From: an uncultured Clostridia bacterium
GTDB taxonomy: Bacteria > Bacillota > Clostridia > Christensenellales > UBA1242
Reading direction: 5' to 3'
DNA length: 64,000 bases
NCBI GenBank assembly: GCA_944380265.1
Contig: CALWGY010000001.1
Coordinates: forward strand, 229,697 to 293,696
Under the pieces are notes generated by a model. The model worked only from the letters and a program-made list of their open reading frames with translations. It ran no database searches and had not been told where the DNA came from. Shown here in pieces: positions 7,390-60,394 of the stretch. Every line of letters begins with the position of its first letter. Within the stretch, counting starts at the first letter, position 1. A program made the position numbers and the translations under genes.

Positions 7390-7857
7390 TTAGTTTGAAT
7401 AAACTTGTGAGTTTGTTGCATTTCCAACAAAGTTTAAAAATCTTTTTGCCATGCTAGTTCCTTCATTGCTTACGCATATTGCACATATTTTTTTGTTTTT
7501 TATGTGTTTTAAAGCCATATTTATCATTATTAGTGGCAAATTTGGTTGCCTAAACTGTTTCAAAATTAAAATTGATGGCAAATAACAATAATGCGATTTT
7601 GTTAAAAAATCTGCTGAATTAAAATTTATGTCGCCACTAAATTTTAAGTTTGTAATGTTACAAAACAATTTTTTTGAAATGTTTGCAATTATTAAATATC
7701 CAACAATTTTATTGTTTTCCAAACACAAAACAATTTTTGCTTTGTTAACGTAACGACAATACCAATTTGGTTTAACTGTTGTGCCGTAATAGGTTTTATC
7801 TAATTGATAAATTGGCTTTATTAAACTTGGTTCAAAATTTTGAATTTTTAACTGCAT
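7390..7857 (-). CDS. small hypothetical protein, weak GNAT-acetyltransferase-like features
   Basis: 155-aa ORF packed 3 nt downstream of thrS. The IVGYLII ... KQFRQPNLPLIMINMAL pattern resembles the GNAT beta4-alpha3 region, but the match is weak. Confidence 0.35.
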   Translation of the reverse strand: MQLKIQNFEPSLIKPIYQLDKTYYGTTVKPNWYCRYVNKAKIVLCLENNKIVGYLIIANISKKLFCNITNLKFSGDINFNSADFLTKSHYCYLPSILILKQFRQPNLPLIMINMALKHIKNKKICAICVSNEGTSMAKRFLNFVGNATNSQVYSN

Positions 7858-21811: not shown

Positions 21812-23803
21812 TTAACCTTCATATTGCCATTCTGGTTTTTTAAAGAAATCTTGTTTTGGTTCTAAGAATGTTGGTTTATGATTTTTTGGGTCTTTTACAA
21901 AGAAATATATGTCTTTTTCAATGTTTTTCCAATCAAAAATGGATTTGTCTAGTTTCAAAAACTCAACAACATGTTCAACACTGTCTGGTGCAATTGGATG
22001 CAACAGTGTTAAAGCCACACGTGACATGTAAAGTGCATCAACCAAAATTTGTTTGCCCTTTTCGGTGTTCGCTAAGTCATTAGAATAACCTGTTAGGGTT
22101 TTATTTATGTTTCTAATTAAAGTGTCAAGTTCGTAGCAAACCATGTGGAATTTGTGTTCATAAACTGCTTTTTCATATTTTAAAATTGTGCATAAACATT
22201 CATTTTTAACATTTTCACTAACTTCGCCATATGGCATTATTCCATCATAATCTTTTTGCCATGTGTAGCAAAGAGTTCTTAAAACACGATTGAACACATT
22301 GGTTAATAAGTTATATTCCCTAACAACTGGGTCTTGTTCGTTTGGATTTGCATCTGGGTTTAGTGGTTTAGGCATAAAACTTGCACTATTATTTCCAACA
22401 TTCATTCCTAAAAAGTGGAAACGCAATTGTTCGGCGCTGTAATATTTTAAAAGATCGTTTGCCATTGGTGGTTTTACTGCTGAACTTGAACTTGCTTTTT
22501 TGTTTAGAAACAAAGTGTGTTTGTTTGCAACAATTTGAGGAATTGACAAATCTCCTTCTTTAACATTTATGGTTGGGTTTTCGCCTTGCATTGCAAACCA
22601 CATTGCTGTTTGTGCTGGACCATAGAAATATATGTTGTCTTCGCCAATAAATTGATAAACTTTTGCATCTTTTGAGCACCACCAATCTTTTAATGTGTTT
22701 TCTTGTTTGGTTTCCATTAAATAGGTTTTAGTGAATGATATTGGTGCCCACAAACTTTCTGGCCAACACCAGAAAGTTAGGTTTTTAAGTTCTTTTGTGT
22801 CGGGTGCTTTAACTCCCCACTCAATGTTTCCTGTTAATCTAAATGGAACAAGTGTTTTGCCAGTTCGGTAACGTATTCCATTTTTTGTTAAAATTTCACA
22901 AGCCAATTCGCGGTTTGCAAGTTTTTCAAATTTTACAGTGAATGATGGTTTGTTATCAACAATAACTTCATGTTTTGGCAAGTTTGTTATTTTGTTAAAT
23001 TCTTCCAAATATTCTTTTTTAATGTAAAGTTCTGGCTTTTTCAAAAACTCGTTAATTTCTTTTATAACATAACTTCTTGTTGGCGTTTTTTCACTTAAAT
23101 ATGTTGTCCATTCTTTTAACAAATCAATGTAGTTATCCAAATTAAAATACCAGTTGCCAATTTCTTTTAAAACTGGTTTTTTACCAGATAGCGTGCTAAT
23201 TGGGTCTATTAATTCTTCTGGCATGTATTGATGTCCCAAATCGCATTCATCAGCATAAGCGTGTTCGCTTGCACATCCTTCAAATGGGCATTTACCCATA
23301 ACTTGGCGACCATTTAAAAATGTTTGTTTTTCTTCATCATAAAATTGCAAAGTTTTTAAAGCACTTAAATTTTTTGTTTCCATTAATCTGTTAAAAACAT
23401 CTTCCGACATTTTTTGATGAACATCTTTTGATTTGCCTAATCCAGATGCTCCAAAATAGTTTAATGAAATGTTGTAACTACTTAAAATTTGTTTGTGGAT
23501 TTTATGAAATTTTGAAACATACTCTGTAATGCTTCCTTCAAACTCTTTTTTCTCAATTGCTTTTCTATATCCTTCCATTGCAGGGCTTCCATAGCAATCG
23601 GTGCCTGAAACATAAATAACATTTTTTTCTCCAATCCTGTCACGCAAAAAACGTGCAAAAAAATCGGAATGGATAAACAATGTTATGTGTCCGCAATGCA
23701 AAGATTTGTTGCCATATGGCATGCCTGATGTTACAATTGCCCTTGTTGGCCACACTGGTCTACGTTCTTTCATTCTGTTTAAAACTTCTGCTGTAATTCC
23801 CAT
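21812..23803 (-). CDS. metG: methionine--tRNA ligase
   Basis: 663-aa ORF with class I HIGH-type motif (SLHCGHI), a Cys-knuckle insertion (CPFEGC...) and a helical anticodon-binding domain. RBS is AAGGAGA. Confidence 0.93.
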   Translation of the reverse strand: MGITAEVLNRMKERRPVWPTRAIVTSGMPYGNKSLHCGHITLFIHSDFFARFLRDRIGEKNVIYVSGTDCYGSPAMEGYRKAIEKKEFEGSITEYVSKFHKIHKQILSSYNISLNYFGASGLGKSKDVHQKMSEDVFNRLMETKNLSALKTLQFYDEEKQTFLNGRQVMGKCPFEGCASEHAYADECDLGHQYMPEELIDPISTLSGKKPVLKEIGNWYFNLDNYIDLLKEWTTYLSEKTPTRSYVIKEINEFLKKPELYIKKEYLEEFNKITNLPKHEVIVDNKPSFTVKFEKLANRELACEILTKNGIRYRTGKTLVPFRLTGNIEWGVKAPDTKELKNLTFWCWPESLWAPISFTKTYLMETKQENTLKDWWCSKDAKVYQFIGEDNIYFYGPAQTAMWFAMQGENPTINVKEGDLSIPQIVANKHTLFLNKKASSSSAVKPPMANDLLKYYSAEQLRFHFLGMNVGNNSASFMPKPLNPDANPNEQDPVVREYNLLTNVFNRVLRTLCYTWQKDYDGIMPYGEVSENVKNECLCTILKYEKAVYEHKFHMVCYELDTLIRNINKTLTGYSNDLANTEKGKQILVDALYMSRVALTLLHPIAPDSVEHVVEFLKLDKSIFDWKNIEKDIYFFVKDPKNHKPTFLEPKQDFFKKPEWQYEG

Positions 23804-23828
23804 AAAAATCTCCTTGTAATTACATATA

Positions 23829-23977
23829 ATATTATCGGAAGTTTTGTCTGCAAGCGCCGTTAGGCATTTGCAAGCAAAACTAATGTTTTTTCAAACTGCA
23901 GTGGCACAAGTTATTGTGCAAGTTGCGTTAGTAAACTTTAAAATTTAACTTGTTTAAATTTTAACACCTCATAGTTT
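23829..23977. repeat. structured tandem-repeat unit 1 (149 nt)
   Basis: Starts ATATTATCGGAAGTT. H1 23841-23880 caps GCC-GTTA-GGC. P1 5' strand 23893-23903. H2 23904-23919 (GCACAA-GTTA-TTGTGC). H3 23920-23938. H4 23940-23962 (AAAATTTAA-CTTGT-TTAAATTTT). P1 3' strand 23965-23977. Confidence 0.85.
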
Positions 23978-24122
23978 ATATTATCGGAAGTTGTAGGCAA
24001 GCAGCCCGCAGGGATATTTGCATACAACTGATGGTTATTCAAACTGTGATGCCACAATTTATTGTGGAATTGCCATCGGCAATTTAAAATTTGCTTGTTC
24101 AAATTTTAATATCACGTAGTTT
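23978..24122. repeat. structured tandem-repeat unit 2 (145 nt)
   Basis: H1 23990-24028 (GTTGTAGGCAA / TTGCATACAAC around CCC-GCA-GGG). P1 24041-24051 with 24111-24122 (GTGAT/ATCAC). H2 24052-24067 (CCACAA-TTTA-TTGTGG). H3 24068-24084 (AATTGCC-ATC-GGCAATT). H4 24086-24107. Confidence 0.85.
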
Positions 24123-24271
24123 ATATTATCGGAAGTTGAAGGCAAGCAGCCCGTAAGGGACAAAAGCATACAACTGATGTTTATTCAAACTGCGGTGACA
24201 CAATTTATTGTGTGGTTTGCATAGGCAAACATTAAAATTTAACTTGCTTAAATTTTAACACCTCATAGTTT
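24123..24271. repeat. structured tandem-repeat unit 3 (149 nt)
   Basis: H1 24135-24174 (cap CCC-GTAA-GGG). P1 24187-24197 with 24259-24271 (GGTG/CACC, AAACT/AGTTT). H2 24198-24213 (ACACAA-TTTA-TTGTGT). H3 24215-24230 (GTTTGC-ATAG-GCAAAC). H4 24234-24256. Confidence 0.85.
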
Positions 24272-24348
24272 ATATTATCACACAAAAATGAAATTAGGCA
24301 ACTTTTATAAAACATAATTCAAAAAAATCCCCAAAAATGGTGGTATTT

Positions 24349-24490
24349 TAATTATCGGAAATTGTTGTCAAGCAGCCCGCAGGGACATTTGACAGCAACT
24401 GATGGTTATTCAAACTGCGGTGACACAAGTTATTGTGTGGTTTGCGTAAGCAAACATTAAAATTAAAATATAATTATAAATTTTACACAA
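24349..24490. repeat. structured tandem-repeat unit 4 (3' part degenerate)
   Basis: H1 24362-24398 (10 bp, TTGTTGTCAA/TTGACAGCAA, with one T.G pair). P1 5' strand 24412-24422. H2 24423-24438. H3 24440-24455 (GTTTGC-GTAA-GCAAAC). H4 and the P1 3' strand are not recognisable. Confidence 0.75.
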
Positions 24491-24541
24491 CATATTTTTA
24501 TATCAGGTTTTAAAATTAAACCAATTTTTTTATGGTGGAAA

Positions 24542-26096: not shown

Positions 26097-26183
26097 TGGT
26101 GCCGAAGACCGGACTTGAACCGGTACGATGTTGCCACCGCAGGATTTTAAGTCCTGTGCGTCTGCCTATTCCGCCACTTCGGC
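26097..26183 (-). tRNA. tRNA-Leu (anticodon UAA), CCA encoded
   Basis: Minus strand reads GCCGAAG...CAGGA-CTTAAAA-TCCTG...long variable arm...GGTTCAAGTCC...CTTCGGCACCA. The cloverleaf was drawn by hand. Confidence 0.9.
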
Positions 26184-26191
26184 ATATAAAT

Positions 26192-26266
26192 TGGAGGCAC
26201 CGTCCAGATTCGAACTGGAGCATAAAGGTTTTGCAGACCTTGGCCTTACCGCTTGGCTACGGTGCC
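26192..26266 (-). tRNA. tRNA-Cys (anticodon GCA), CCA encoded
   Basis: Minus strand reads GGCACCG...AAGGT-CTGCAAA-ACCTT...AGTTCGAATCT...CGGTGCCTCCA. Confidence 0.9.
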
Positions 26267-26323
26267 ATTACTCTTTTAATCTTAACGAACCTAAATCGGC
26301 TTTTCCTTTTGTTAAAAATAAAA

Positions 26324-26398
26324 TGGAGCGGAGGACGGGATTTGAACCCGCGACATTCGCCTTGGCAAGGCGACGCTCTACCGCTGAGCCACCCCCGC
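26324..26398 (-). tRNA. tRNA-Gly (anticodon GCC), CCA encoded
   Basis: Minus strand reads GCGGGGG...TCGCC-TTGCCAA-GGCGA...GGTTCAAATCC...CCTCCGCTCCA. Confidence 0.9.
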
Positions 26399-26422
26399 AT
26401 AATTTAATGCCATAAAAATAAA

Positions 26423-26498
26423 TGGTGGGAGTTATAGGGCTCGAACCTATGACCTCCTGCTTGTAAGGCAGATGCTCTCCCAACTGAGCTAAACTCCC
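26423..26498 (-). tRNA. tRNA-Val (anticodon UAC), CCA encoded
   Basis: Minus strand reads GGGAGTT TAGCTCAGTTGGGAGAGC ... CTGC-CTTACAA-GCAG ... GGTTCGAGCCC ... AACTCCCACCA. Confidence 0.9.
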
Positions 26499-40007: not shown

Positions 40008-42251
40008 TTATTTGCTTTTTAAAATTTGCAAAGGTGCCATGCTAAGTGACAATGTTTTGTTACCAAACTTACCAAAATCAACTGTAACATCTGGTGTTTG
40101 CGATGTTAAATTTGCATTAATTATTGTTCCAACACCAAATTTTGGATGCAAAACTTGCGTTCCAACTGTGTAGGAAGAATAGTTATTTTTTTGTGTGTTA
40201 AGTTTTTTGACCATAACATCTTGCAAATTACTTGAAACATTTTCATTTGTTTGTTTTGCATAATTATACACGTTTTCTGTATAATTATTATTTGAATAAG
40301 ATTTTGAATAATCGTAATAATTTTTTGTTTCGGTTCTAAAATTATTAACAAAATTTGGGGTTTTAACCACCAATTCCATTTCCTTTAAAAATCTGCTTGC
40401 AATGGAAAAACTTCTGTCGTGATATAAGTATCTAGACTTAGTGTTTGTTAAAAACACTTGTTTTTTTGCACGCGTTATTGCAACATACATAAGTCTGCGT
40501 TCTTCTTCAATTTCATTTTCGGAATCTTGTGCACGGCTTATTGGAAACAACCCTTCTTCCACCCCAATTATGAAAACATAATCAAATTCCAAGCCCTTTG
40601 AAGCGTGAATGGTGCTAACGTTTACCGCGTTTTTATCATCTTCTGCTTCATCAATTGAACTTTGAAGTGTTATGCTTTCAAGATAATCGGAAAGTTCACA
40701 ATTAGGGTTTTGATGCTCGAATGATTTTATGGATTCAAGCAACTGCGAAATGTTTAAAAGCCTGTCGTTGTCTTCATCATCAAGTTTGTTGTATGCTTCC
40801 AAAATATCTGCAAGTTTTATAACTTCATTTGCAAAATTATAAATTCCAGAAGTTTTATCTGGCAAATTTTGATAAACATATTTTAACGATGAAAGTTTTT
40901 CGCGTAGTGCCTTTGGTAAATCATACATTTCATCGTTTAAAACAACTTCTAACATGCTAACATTGTTTGTTTTTGCAATGGTTTCAATTTTTTCAACACT
41001 AACATTGCCAATTCCGCGTTTTGGAAAATTTATTATTCTTTTTAAACTTTCGTTATCTTTTGGATTAATTGTTAAACGCAAATATGCAAGCACATTTTTA
41101 ATTTCTGCCCTTTCAAAAAACTTGAATATGCCAGAAACAACATAAGGCAAATTGTAACTTAACAATTTTTCTTCAATTAATCGGCTTAACGCACTTAATC
41201 TAAACAAAACTGAAATTTGGTTTGGCTGAACACCATGACTTATTAAATTATATATTTTGTTCGCAACATATTCTGCTTCCTTAACTTCATCTTGTGCAGT
41301 GAAATATGTTGGTGGTTCGCCTTCTTCATTTTCAGTCCACAACACTTTTTCAATGCGTGAAACATTATGTTTAATTAACTTGTTTGCAATGTTTAAAATG
41401 TTTTTTGTGCTTCTGTAATTTTGTTCAAGTTTATAACATTTAACATTTAAAAAATCTTGTCTAAAATTGATAATGTTTTCGATGTTTGCGCCACGCCAAC
41501 CATAAATGCACTGGTCTTCATCACCAACAACAAAAATGTTTTTGTGCTCACCTGCAAGCATTTTTGCAATTTTATATTGCACCAAGTTTGTGTCTTGGAA
41601 CTCATCTATGTGAATGTATTTAAACCTGTGTTGATACAACTTTAAAACATTTGGGTGAAGTTTAAATAGTTCCAAAGTTTTTGTTAACAAATCATCAAAA
41701 TCTAACGCATTATTGTTTTTTAACTGATTTTGATACTCAGAATAAACCTTTTTAACATCAGCTGCATTTGGTTTAAATTCTGTTATTGCATAGTATTCAT
41801 CTGGGTCAAATCCCAAGTTTTTTGCTTTGTCAATTTCACTTGAAAAATCTTTAACCTTATCGGATTCAAAACCTAAATCGGTTACAATTTTTTTTAATAA
41901 TTTATCTTTATCAGATGTGTCATAAATTGTGAAATATCTGTTAAACCCGTTAAGGTTTGAAATGTTTTCCCTTAAAATTTTTGCACACATGCTGTGAAAA
42001 GTTGAAATCCAAATGTTGTTTGCATTTGGACATGCCAACAAAATTCGTTCCTTCATTTCGTTTGTTGCTTTGTTTGTGAATGTTATTGCTAAAATGTTGT
42101 ATGGGTCAACACCACATTCATTTATTAAATAACTAATTCGTTCCGTTAACAACCTAGTTTTTCCGCTGCCGGCACCTGCTGTTACTAAAATTGCACCATT
42201 AACATCAATTGCTGGTTTTAATTGTTCTTCGTTAAGTAGGTTAAGCGACAT
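40008..42251 (-). CDS. pcrA: ATP-dependent DNA helicase PcrA (UvrD family)
   Basis: 747-aa ORF with AGAGSGKT, DEFQDT and QNYRS. A C-terminal Tudor-like segment (VGTQVLHPKFGVGTII) is preceded by an Asn/Tyr-rich linker. Confidence 0.9.
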   Translation of the reverse strand: MSLNLLNEEQLKPAIDVNGAILVTAGAGSGKTRLLTERISYLINECGVDPYNILAITFTNKATNEMKERILLACPNANNIWISTFHSMCAKILRENISNLNGFNRYFTIYDTSDKDKLLKKIVTDLGFESDKVKDFSSEIDKAKNLGFDPDEYYAITEFKPNAADVKKVYSEYQNQLKNNNALDFDDLLTKTLELFKLHPNVLKLYQHRFKYIHIDEFQDTNLVQYKIAKMLAGEHKNIFVVGDEDQCIYGWRGANIENIINFRQDFLNVKCYKLEQNYRSTKNILNIANKLIKHNVSRIEKVLWTENEEGEPPTYFTAQDEVKEAEYVANKIYNLISHGVQPNQISVLFRLSALSRLIEEKLLSYNLPYVVSGIFKFFERAEIKNVLAYLRLTINPKDNESLKRIINFPKRGIGNVSVEKIETIAKTNNVSMLEVVLNDEMYDLPKALREKLSSLKYVYQNLPDKTSGIYNFANEVIKLADILEAYNKLDDEDNDRLLNISQLLESIKSFEHQNPNCELSDYLESITLQSSIDEAEDDKNAVNVSTIHASKGLEFDYVFIIGVEEGLFPISRAQDSENEIEEERRLMYVAITRAKKQVFLTNTKSRYLYHDRSFSIASRFLKEMELVVKTPNFVNNFRTETKNYYDYSKSYSNNNYTENVYNYAKQTNENVSSNLQDVMVKKLNTQKNNYSSYTVGTQVLHPKFGVGTIINANLTSQTPDVTVDFGKFGNKTLSLSMAPLQILKSK

Positions 42252-42383
42252 AAAAAAACTCCTAAATTTTATTACAAAAAATTATAACAAATTTAGAAGT
42301 TTTAATCAATTTATAACATGCTTAATATTATATTTTTGAACTTTTGTTTGTTTGCGCTAAACTTTAAAAATGTTTAAACTTAA

Positions 42384-42478
42384 TGATGGCTGGGGGTGTG
42401 CGATGGCACAACGCAGTTGTGCGTTTTGCGGTGGCAAAATTAAAATTTAACTTTCGTTAAATTTTAACATCGCACACC
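42384..42478. repeat. dispersed partial copy of the 23.8-kb structured repeat (junction module only)
   Basis: TGATGG tag 42384-42389. P1 GGTGTGCGATG (42395-42405) pairs perfectly with CATCGCACACC (42468-42478). P1 encloses H2 42406-42422 (GCACAAC-GCA-GTTGTGC), H3 42424-42439 (TTTTGC-GGTG-GCAAAA) and H4 42442-42465 (AAAATTTAA-CTTTCG-TTAAATTTT). Confidence 0.8.
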
Positions 42479-42485
42479 TTTCCAC

Positions 42486-42872
42486 CTAACTAATTTTGCT
42501 TTTTAAATTTAAATTATATTCATTTTTAATTTTGTTATATTTATCAACAACATTTAAAACATAAAATTGTTTTTCAACATCTGTTAATTTACTAAAAACA
42601 TTGTTATCAATTAAAAGCCCAATAGGATTATAAATTTCAACAGGACTATTTAAAATTTTGTAAACTTTGCTTACAAAATCTTCATCAATTTCGTTTGTTA
42701 TTGAAACAAAAGTGGCTTTTGAATTTATTTTTTTAAATGAATTAAAATTTTTTACAAAATAACTGTTAACAGTCATTGCATTTTTTGCTTTGGCTTTTTC
42801 TGCATTTGTATATAACCCACGTTTTAAGCGTTCTTTGGCAAGTGATGCCATACTTTTTAAATTACTACTCAT
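42486..42872 (-). CDS. hypothetical protein (128 aa)
   Basis: Plausible ORF with an RBS (AAGGAG) upstream of pcrA. I recognise no family. Confidence 0.55.
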   Translation of the reverse strand: MSSNLKSMASLAKERLKRGLYTNAEKAKAKNAMTVNSYFVKNFNSFKKINSKATFVSITNEIDEDFVSKVYKILNSPVEIYNPIGLLIDNNVFSKLTDVEKQFYVLNVVDKYNKIKNEYNLNLKSKIS

Positions 42873-51273: not shown

Positions 51274-51327
51274 AAAAAAATGCAATTAAATTGTTTAAAA
51301 AAACAAATTTTAAACAATTTAATTGCA
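51274..51327 (-). terminator. terminator after hemW (20-bp perfect inverted repeat)
   Basis: TGCAATTAAATTGTTTAAAA (51281-51300), 7-nt loop, TTTTAAACAATTTAATTGCA (51308-51327). On the minus strand it is followed by a 7-nt U-run. Confidence 0.65.
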
Positions 51328-51335
51328 TTTAATTT

Positions 51336-60050: not shown

Positions 60051-60394
60051 TTAGTTAGACATTAAATAAGCCGAGTTCTGTATTAAGTGGTCATCTATCT
60101 AGACACGGTATTGCTAGCGTGTTCAAGCGATGTATCGAAAAACCAAGCGAGCAACTTTTAAATGTTTTTCTTATCTTGCACCGAGTAGTGTTTACAGCAA
60201 ATGTTAGTTACCTAACAAGTTGGTGAGCTCTTACCTCGCCCTTTCACCCTTACTTTAAAAACTTAAAGCGGTTTATTTCTGTTGCACTTTACCTTAGGTC
60301 ACCCTAGCCAGACGTTATCTGGTACCCTTGCTCTGTGGTGCTCGGACTTTCCTCATAAGGTTACCCTCATGCGACCACATAAATATCTAACTAA
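60051..60394 (-). ncRNA. rnpB: RNase P RNA
   Basis: Minus strand contains the universal P4 elements GAGGAAAGTCCGAGC and ACAGAACTCGGCTTA. P1 forms between TTAGTTAGATATTTA (5') and TAAATGTCTAACTAA (3'). A consensus promoter ends 6 nt upstream and a terminator follows directly downstream. Confidence 0.9.

Follow-up and report, generated by a model that had tools for sequence, protein, structure and literature searches.

A four-way junction beside pcrA belongs to a dispersed family of ~146-nt repeats with dif-like ends in uncultured gut Clostridia

Introduction

In a 64,000-nt stretch of the genome of an uncultured Clostridia bacterium (hereafter the window), an 84-nt four-way junction lies between the helicase gene pcrA and a gene for a protein of 128 amino acids (aa), and four related units form an array upstream of metG. 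Does the structure beside pcrA, which we call copy 5, act on its housekeeping neighbor, or is it one inserted copy of something that moves? A first-pass annotation of the window had proposed a modular, dispersed family rather than a one-off duplication, had taken the junction module to be its core, and had offered two accounts of its placement: a cis-acting leader or 3'-untranslated-region element of pcrA and metG, or a preferred insertion context. Here we find that copy 5 belongs to an undescribed family of ~146-nt non-coding mobile repeats of uncultured gut Clostridia. The best explanation, which we favor with moderate confidence, is that the junction is the core of a mobile repeat whose dif-like ends would be used for Xer-type mobilization.

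Results

Copy 5 is an inserted member of a structured family

The junction of copy 5 spans 42395-42478, is preceded by the linker TGATGG and is closed by P1, a perfect 11-bp helix, around the hairpins H2, H3 and H4 (Table 1). All of the helices listed in the first-pass annotation, and the linker, were present at their positions. With the plus strand treated as RNA, the minimum free energy fold of copy 5 was exactly this four-way junction, at -49.5 kcal/mol compared with -24.0 ± 3.0 kcal/mol for shuffled sequences (n = 200; z = -8.55), none of which folded equally well (0/200). For the complement, the fold was almost as favorable (z = -7.57). R1, a covariance model by which we define the family (P1 closing H2, H3 and H4 after the linker CTGATGG), scored copy 5 at 75.9 bits (E = 7e-13), placing it within the family. 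Relative to the family consensus, P1 of copy 5 carries four compensatory double substitutions and is lengthened in the fold by additional pairs. The first-pass annotation had noted that the stems of H2, H3 and P1 differ from those of the array copies and still pair.

No record identical to the PcrA protein of the window was found, and we obtained the corresponding loci of relatives through their PcrA and MetG orthologues. Gene order around pcrA is kept (dnaK, dnaJ, rsmE, a MiaB-like gene, HIT, rpsU, the 128-aa gene, pcrA, ligA, rpoZ, priA), and the gap between the 128-aa gene and pcrA measures 99-109 nt in three relatives (L117, L118 and L119) versus 233 nt in the window. Relatives with 82% and 76% identical PcrA had no element and no covariance-model hit at the pcrA locus; a contig of the same species carries the element there. 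Judged from these empty sites, copy 5 is a lineage-specific insertion of ~149 nt, with boundaries good to ~1-2 nt, that sits directly past the stop codon of the 128-aa gene. The array before metG was absent in relatives with 82-86% identical MetG.

Aligned over its full length, copy 5 matches the array units throughout, including the 5' half of H1 (GAACTTTTGTTTGTTTGCGC in copy 5 and GAAGTTTTGTCTGCAAGCGC in the array). The earlier description of copy 5 as lacking H1 therefore holds for the hairpin, which is absent, and not for the sequence, half of which still aligns. The left arm is gone, with TTTTTGAAC.. where intact members have TTATCGGAAGT, and the right end reads CACACC-TTTCCA, without the ATAG and TTTATA of intact members. 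Copy 5 is thus a decayed member of the family and, on the simplest view, probably an immobilized relic. At 0.42, its G+C content is the highest among the ~160 model hits listed, equalled only by the copy of the same species (L116 5316-5407) and followed by values of 0.14-0.38 in the others. The two strains have the same junction, with several differences in the H1 remnant beside it. The P1 variant of copy 5 was not met elsewhere, and a metagenome scan for it returned one chance match in a GC-rich coding region. A perfect, GC-rich junction in an AT-rich genome leaves room for the idea that copy 5 may have acquired a secondary use or constraint.

A tRNA or tRNA-like identity was rejected. The first-pass annotation had already noted the lack of tRNA D- and T-loop signatures, and ARAGORN and the Rfam tRNA model (RF00005) found no tRNA at the junction, and the only four in the window lie at 26.1-26.5 kb. 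Rfam searches at the gathering threshold and at E<=10 gave chance matches only at the element and the array, among them one to rli51 within 42300-42560.

The family is dispersed in uncultured gut Clostridia

The pattern of H4, which occurs three times in the window, matched more than 115 stretches at least in a GTDB set of one genome per species. Among the matches listed, the hosts were almost all uncultured gut Clostridia represented by metagenome-assembled genomes (MAGs), ~40 in number and Christensenella-like, such as 'Christensenella sp. UBA6406', Candidatus Caccovivens faecavium and many BRZ_/E*_ bins. With R1 we found 145 copies in 100 sources and 17 in further loci, including subfamilies that have divergent stems and the same architecture. 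A dispersed, modular family is thus what the covariance-model search proposed in the first-pass annotation returned, with the junction module as its most constant structural part. Five copies lie in the window, all on the plus strand (the four of the metG array and copy 5); a weak model hit at 7583-7696 consists of an H4-like hairpin only and is not a copy. Copies occur singly or in tandem, at a tandem spacing of ~140-148 nt. Many H4 matches lie 30-130 nt from contig ends, and copies often break assemblies. BLAST searches of plasmids and of phages and a pattern scan of IMG/VR gave nothing similar, Rfam holds no matching family, and we found no published description of the family in the literature.

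Copies stand in all kinds of gene contexts: convergent (18), tandem antisense (17), tandem sense (11), divergent (7) and inside an open reading frame (ORF; 1). Their orientation was 31:17 relative to the local gene strand and 38:39 relative to GC skew, and these proxies for replication direction gave no sign of a replication-strand bias. Transposases are not among the genes that recur beside the copies, and no TnpA or TnpB was found among 640 neighboring ORFs; the neighbor proteins that do recur are housekeeping ones (an ABC transporter, MnmE, aminoacyl-tRNA synthetases, RarA and Fmt). Truncated copies at three loci (L028, L038 and L103) contained no element-borne ORF, and thus gave no autonomous partner. 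A search for empty sites among the element loci yielded filled/filled pairs only.

Two further observations concern the neighborhood of the copies. Several, in L002, L007, L015, L026 and L047, adjoin genes for class I aminoacyl-tRNA synthetases, like the array before metG; this adjacency looks coincidental, because the relative positions vary (upstream, downstream, either strand). Plausible outward promoter candidates were seen at the left end (TTGCAA-17-TAATAT) and the right end (TTTAAA-18-TATATT) of the element. They were rejected, being not above chance in a scan and without an echo in the orientation of neighboring genes.

Covariation supports a conserved fold

In the model alignment, 89.9% of the cells were paired, compared with 77.9% in shuffles and 30-47% when the partners were slid by 1-3 columns. 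Double changes were found in 33 of the 34 pairs, and H2 and H3 have three or four pair types per position. This covariation supports all four helices of the junction and also a fifth pairing, P0, between the left end and the linker, which co-varies in three left-end types (ATCG/TGAT, ATTATGC/GCATAAT and ATAGG/CCTAT). Subfamilies keep the same architecture with another P1 (CGGAAGT/ACTTCCG or AGTAAGT/ACTTTCT) or another H4 (AAAATTTTA-TGATAG-TAAAATTTT).

The fold is not symmetrical between the strands. Of the H3 loops, 99 have G as their first and A as their last base, versus one of the T..C kind; the middle bases vary, and a C-G pair closes the loop (c(GNNA)g type). H1 and P0 contain tandem G.A pairs on the plus strand. 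From this asymmetry of loops and G.A pairs, the plus strand is the better-folding one. GNNA loops and tandem G.A pairs stabilize RNA and single-stranded DNA alike. The helices showed no excess of G-U over A-C, a strand test that the misalignment of H3 in that model alignment helped to make uninformative.

Some rearranged forms were also seen (L007 4293-4383; L012, L062, L037, L029 and L099). The H4 loop, which sits on a palindromic stem, is flipped relative to the module in some copies, and one MAG lineage has a module rearranged to P1-Ha-H4-Hb-P1', with arms ACTTCCTAGAA or ACTTCCTATAA.

The ends of the repeat resemble dif

We placed the unit ends from conservation profiles and the flanks of single copies. 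An intact unit is preceded by TTTATA (..TATA in the profiles) and consists of the left end TTATCGGAAGT (TTATCGGAAG in the profiles), H1, CTGATGG, a spacer, the P1/H2/H3/H4 junction and ..CACATAG, after which TTTATA follows again. The suggestion of a preferred insertion context was supported: insertion is at AT-rich, TTTATA-like sites and, at metG, in the -10 region of the promoter. The main subfamily has no long inverted repeat (its ends match at 6/10 positions) and no site-dependent duplication; the L054-type subfamily has an inverted repeat of 10-11 bp, TATCGGAAGT. Left and right flank variants do not co-vary, and the same TTTATA stands at the right end everywhere. In tandem copies, the distance from ..TAG to TTATCGGAAG was exactly 6 nt in 21 of 22 junctions, and this spacer was TTTATA in 16.

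Read on the complement, the unit junction is ACTTCCGATAA-TATAAA-CTATGTGATG, a dif-like core of 11-6-11 layout. Predicted Firmicutes dif sites include ACTTCCGATAA-TATATA-TTATGTAAACT in Macrococcus caseolyticus and ACTTCCGATAA-TAGATA-TTATGTTGCCT in Desulforudis audaxviator (PMC3025954, Table S1). The left end of the family, ACTTCCGATAA on the complement, is identical to the XerC arm of these two species, the junction center has the correct length and is TATA-like, and the other arm retains a TATGT core. Variant left ends follow other dif arms: ACTTCGCATAA is the Lactobacillus casei arm (L001/L005); the ends of L089, ACTTCCTATA(T), and of L044, ACTTTCTATA(T), come near the arms of Staphylococcus aureus and Clostridium botulinum (ATTTTCTATAA); and ACTTCCTATAA and ACTTCCTAGAA, in a third lineage, are as in S. 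aureus and Bacillus subtilis. The dif site of Bacillus cereus is ACTGCCTATAA-TATATA-TTATGTTAACT.

We scored ~1.9 million positions, across all sequence in the analysis, with a weight matrix of 20 distinct Firmicutes dif sites, which may not match the hosts' own dif. All 32 of the 28-mers above 14 bits were element junctions, and the top one reached 26.7 bits compared with 25.3 for the lowest real dif. The flanks of single insertions were more dif-arm-like than controls beside the same hexamers (p = 5e-6 and 1e-11), with the right-flank likeness inflated by decayed neighboring units.

A second dif-like string, CTGATGGTCA-TACATA-CTATGTGATG, lies inside the unit, running from the linker through the spacer into the 5' strand of P1. 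Folding of the single strand sets this internal string against the junction string; both arms are then paired and the centers partly mismatched, the arrangement reported for the folded attP of CTXphi. As for a candidate enzyme, a gene for an Xer-type tyrosine recombinase, cut by the locus end, lies ~5.4 kb from a copy (L010 7464-8000, minus strand), and two more distant tyrosine recombinases were found in host loci L018 and L064.

The pcrA and metG loci and other features of the window

G+C makes up 31% of the window, the genetic code is the standard one, and almost every gene is on the minus strand. The 128-aa gene had been described as an orphan and turned out to be kept at the same position in all relatives examined. 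Copy 5 lies upstream of the conserved pcrA promoter and for that reason is not the leader of pcrA.

At metG, the array split the ancestral promoter between its -35 and -10 elements (window 23826-23842, with the metG start at 23803; compare L122 700-926 and L123 3780-4012). In relatives this promoter reads TTGCTG-17-TATAAT or TTGATT-..-TATAAT. The window retains the -10 region, and the nearest -35-like hexamer, TTGCAG, lies 16 nt upstream of TATTAT, inside the left end of the element. Because this nearest hexamer belongs to the element, a hybrid promoter may now serve the essential metG gene. In another strain of the same species (GCA_949297495.1; L121 3454-3917), the array differs from that of the window in unit number and arrangement. 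In the metG-proximal unit there, the H1 is that of window unit 1 and the junction that of window unit 2, which therefore points to a crossover in the linker or spacer, and beyond a 77-nt spacer there are two units in that strain versus one in the window.

Elsewhere in the window, between a HemN-like radical-SAM gene and hrcA, two perfectly inverted 23-bp copies stand 7 nt apart (AAATGCAATTAAATTGTTTAAAA / TTTTAAACAATTTAATTGCATTT; 51278-51330); this inverted repeat does not have the CIRCE consensus. An RNase P RNA of class A scored 267 bits at 60051-60390 on the minus strand, and four tRNA genes (Leu, Cys, Gly and Val) occupy 26097-26498, also on the minus strand.

Table 1. Positions in the window of copy 5, its parts, its neighbors and the metG array.
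Feature	Positions	Strand	Basis or remark
Copy 5, whole inserted unit, ~149 nt	42337..42485	+	Empty-site comparison with L117/L118/L119; full-length alignment to array units
Decayed left end and remnant of the H1 5' half	42337..42383	+	Alignment; family left-end consensus
Linker word TGATGG	42384..42389	+	Conserved; pairs with the left end (helix P0) in intact members
P1 5' strand, GGTGTGCGATG	42395..42405	+	Pairs with CATCGCACACC
H2, GCACAAC-GCA-GTTGTGC, c(GCA)g triloop	42406..42422	+	Fold; family covariation
H3, TTTTGC-GGTG-GCAAAA	42424..42439	+	Fold; family covariation; loop type
H4, 11-bp A/T-only stem, loop CTTTCG	42440..42467	+	Most sequence-conserved hairpin of the family
P1 3' strand, CATCGCACACC	42468..42478	+	In intact members, this strand plus ATAG is the XerD-arm-like right end
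pcrA (UvrD/PcrA helicase)	40008..42251	-	Neighbor of copy 5
Conserved 128-aa gene, no Pfam domain	42486..42872	-	Position and length (127-128 aa) kept between rpsU and pcrA in all relatives examined
pcrA promoter, TTGATT-17-TATAAT with TG	42281..42309	-	Kept in all four lineages; between the element and pcrA
Array of four family units upstream of metG	23832..24499	+	Junction modules 23888-23978, 24036-24123, 24182-24272 and 24407-24499
Dif-like complete 28-mer, unit 1/unit 2 junction	23964..23991	-	ACTTCCGATAA-TATAAA-CTATGAGGTGT
Dif-like complete 28-mer, unit 2/unit 3 junction	24109..24136	-	ACTTCCGATAA-TATAAA-CTACGTGATAT

Discussion

How could a repeat that carries no gene move? Placed head to tail, the right end, TTTATA and the left end make a dif-like 11-6-11 core, the left end having the sequence of a canonical XerC-binding arm of Firmicutes and the 3' strand of P1 that of a degenerate XerD-like arm. 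In the mechanism that we propose, a host Xer-type tyrosine recombinase would recombine this core with pseudo-sites that contain TTTATA, leaving the 6-bp center repeated at both ends and recreating a full site at each unit junction, and such recreation would explain the tandem arrays. P0 and P1 would render both arms double-stranded in a folded single strand, resembling the attP of CTXphi. The two arms would then be capped compactly by H1 and by H2-H4, a role that would explain why pairing is conserved despite unconserved sequence. Mobility would thus depend on Xer and might pass through a single-stranded intermediate, in which the reacting strand could be the plus strand favored by the loop asymmetry.

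We suggest more tentatively, and with some doubt, that the family may represent a new class of mobile DNA: gene-less, self-folding attachment sites of ~146 nt that, like that of CTXphi, would hijack XerC/XerD, spread to pseudo-dif sites and build arrays. They would then be the smallest Xer-exploiting elements known, and bcr1 of the Bacillus cereus group perhaps behaves likewise.

Several points weigh against mobilization by Xer. The copies are dispersed at many sites with flanks that are weakly dif-like, while known Xer-exploiters use the single chromosomal dif, and a double-stranded circle of 146 bp would be very small. The XerD-like arm fits at 6-8 of 11 positions, wobble and G.A pairs make the arm duplex formed by P0 an imperfect one in the main subfamily, and the arm-likeness of right flanks owes part of its strength to decayed neighbors. 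The plus strand, to which the loop asymmetry points, has the element boundary at the XerD cleavage position, and XerC would cut the other strand; catalysis by XerD or recombination of double strands must therefore be assumed. The mechanism is read from relatives, since copy 5 itself is without both arms, and the resemblance to dif was spotted post hoc. Finally, the role of the host Xer proteins is a prediction from sequence alone.

Three other explanations are possible, each of which fails at least one test. First, the repeats could be a family of structured RNAs made from the plus strand, either small RNAs or elements that stabilize mRNA, in which case copy 5 might be a 3' structure exapted by the 128-aa gene or an antisense RNA. 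The strong covariation would suit such a family, as would GNNA loops, tandem G.A pairs and wobble pairs that occur on one strand only. So would copy 5, with its perfect junction and top G+C content despite decayed ends, and with an identical junction in a second strain beside a differing H1 remnant. We nevertheless regard an RNA function as unlikely: orientation relative to neighboring genes is mixed, presence varies among close relatives, no internal promoter rises above chance, no Rfam family matches, the helices lack the G-U excess, and the plus strand of the window is antisense to every neighboring gene.

A second explanation, which we hold to be quite unlikely, is a palindrome-associated transposable element (PATE) derived from IS200/IS605, of which a Y1 HUH transposase would move single-stranded DNA via subterminal hairpins and insert it 3' of a fixed short target without duplication. 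This would account for the main subfamily, which has asymmetric ends with subterminal hairpins and no long terminal inverted repeats, for the fixed AT-rich flank in place of a variable duplication, and for structure conserved on one strand. The left and right hairpins are dissimilar, however; orientation is unbiased by either proxy, the neighboring ORFs (at the loci only) contain neither TnpA nor TnpB, and the 11-6-11 dif-like junction with its canonical XerC arms is not predicted.

Third, a classical MITE (miniature inverted-repeat transposable element) could be moved in trans by a DDE transposase, with P1 and the left end as terminal or subterminal inverted repeats and TA or TATA as the duplicated target. 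The copies are indeed small, non-coding, numerous, targeted to AT-rich sites and found in both orientations. The L054-type subfamily has its 10-11-bp inverted repeat, and bcr1, the closest analogue in the literature, is described as MITE-like. We judge this reading improbable, given that the ends of the main subfamily match at so few positions, that the identical flanking 6-mer stands everywhere with left and right variants that do not co-vary, that no transposase was found near the copies, and that the covariation of the internal hairpins and of P0 would be left unaccounted for.

A T-box-like or riboswitch-type leader of pcrA and metG, suggested by the close upstream position of the element at two housekeeping genes in the window, is highly improbable and already contradicted: the conserved pcrA promoter stands between the element and pcrA, the element is on the strand antisense to the genes, and relatives lack it at each of the two loci. 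It also occurs elsewhere in all gene contexts and matches no T-box or other Rfam model. The regulatory interpretation at pcrA is wrong, and no pcrA function is indicated. The first-pass annotation had itself held that varied contexts, both orientations and terminal repeats would speak against its view, and for a regulatory role this is essentially what the family presents.

If mobilization by Xer is correct, then minimal non-coding parasites exploit this system and multiply within a chromosome, beyond the phages, islands and plasmid modules that do so. It would also supply a testable mechanism for structured repeats of the bcr1 type, the mobility of which has stood unexplained for about twenty years, and would leave to be explained how dozens of dif-like sites can be tolerated in one genome. 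For the assembly and annotation of gut Clostridia MAGs the repeats matter, since contigs break at them and promoters can be rebuilt by them, of which metG is an example. For copy 5, the attractive but mistaken idea of a regulatory RNA of pcrA is removed.

Comparison with known systems

With REP/BIME, BOX, RUP, Correia and ERIC elements the family shares being short, structured, intergenic, multi-copy and sometimes modular or in tandem (PMC3184786). None of these is described with dif-like ends; REPs are palindromes of 20-40 nt with a GTAG or CGTC head, and in RUP and Correia elements the inverted repeats are clear and TA is duplicated. The attC sites of integrons resemble the family in another way: they combine variable sequence with a conserved folded single strand that a tyrosine recombinase recognizes, and their terminal structure is variable. 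Unlike attC, the family shows no R''/R' motifs (RYYYAAC / GTTRRRY) evident by eye, and it has no cassettes, no intI and dispersed copies.

Xer-related systems come closer in mechanism. The pdif modules of Acinetobacter differ from the family in carrying genes, in being flanked by complete inverted sites, in lying on plasmids and in having no conserved folded structure. Like the repeats described here, they are segments bounded by XerC/XerD-type sites and are considered to be mobilized by Xer recombination (PMC11705084). Integrative mobile elements exploiting Xer (IMEX), among them CTXphi, share with the family a dif-like 11-6-11 attachment core in which the XerC arm is good and the XerD arm poor, the lack of an integrase of their own, and tandem copies. 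In CTXphi, two dif-like sites pair within the folded single strand. By its sequence the family has the dif-like 28-bp attachment core that characterizes IMEX, a site lost in copy 5, and it lacks their integration at the chromosomal dif, its copies standing in many contexts. IMEX are kilobase-sized phages or islands at one chromosomal dif, whereas the repeats are 146 nt long, gene-less and dispersed at pseudo-sites, and their use of Xer is a prediction from sequence.

By analogy, the closest described system is bcr1 of the Bacillus cereus group, one of the group A 'Bacillus cereus repeats'. It differs in belonging to another host clade and in having two stem-loops on a stem where the family has a four-way junction plus H1, and the family, for its part, forms tandem arrays. 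We found no dif-like reading of the bcr1 ends in the literature examined. On the side of likeness, both are non-coding and ~150 bp long (bcr1 ~155 bp), with a fixed AT-rich direct repeat, TTTAT in bcr1 and TTTATA in the family (PMC3184786, PMC6542083, PMC3446304). In both, distribution varies among close strains and compensatory changes keep a cruciform-like fold. The family thus shares the properties by which bcr1 is recognized, in a comparison of descriptions rather than of sequences, and for bcr1, too, a mobility resembling site-specific recombination has been proposed (PMC3184786, PMC6542083, PMC3446304).

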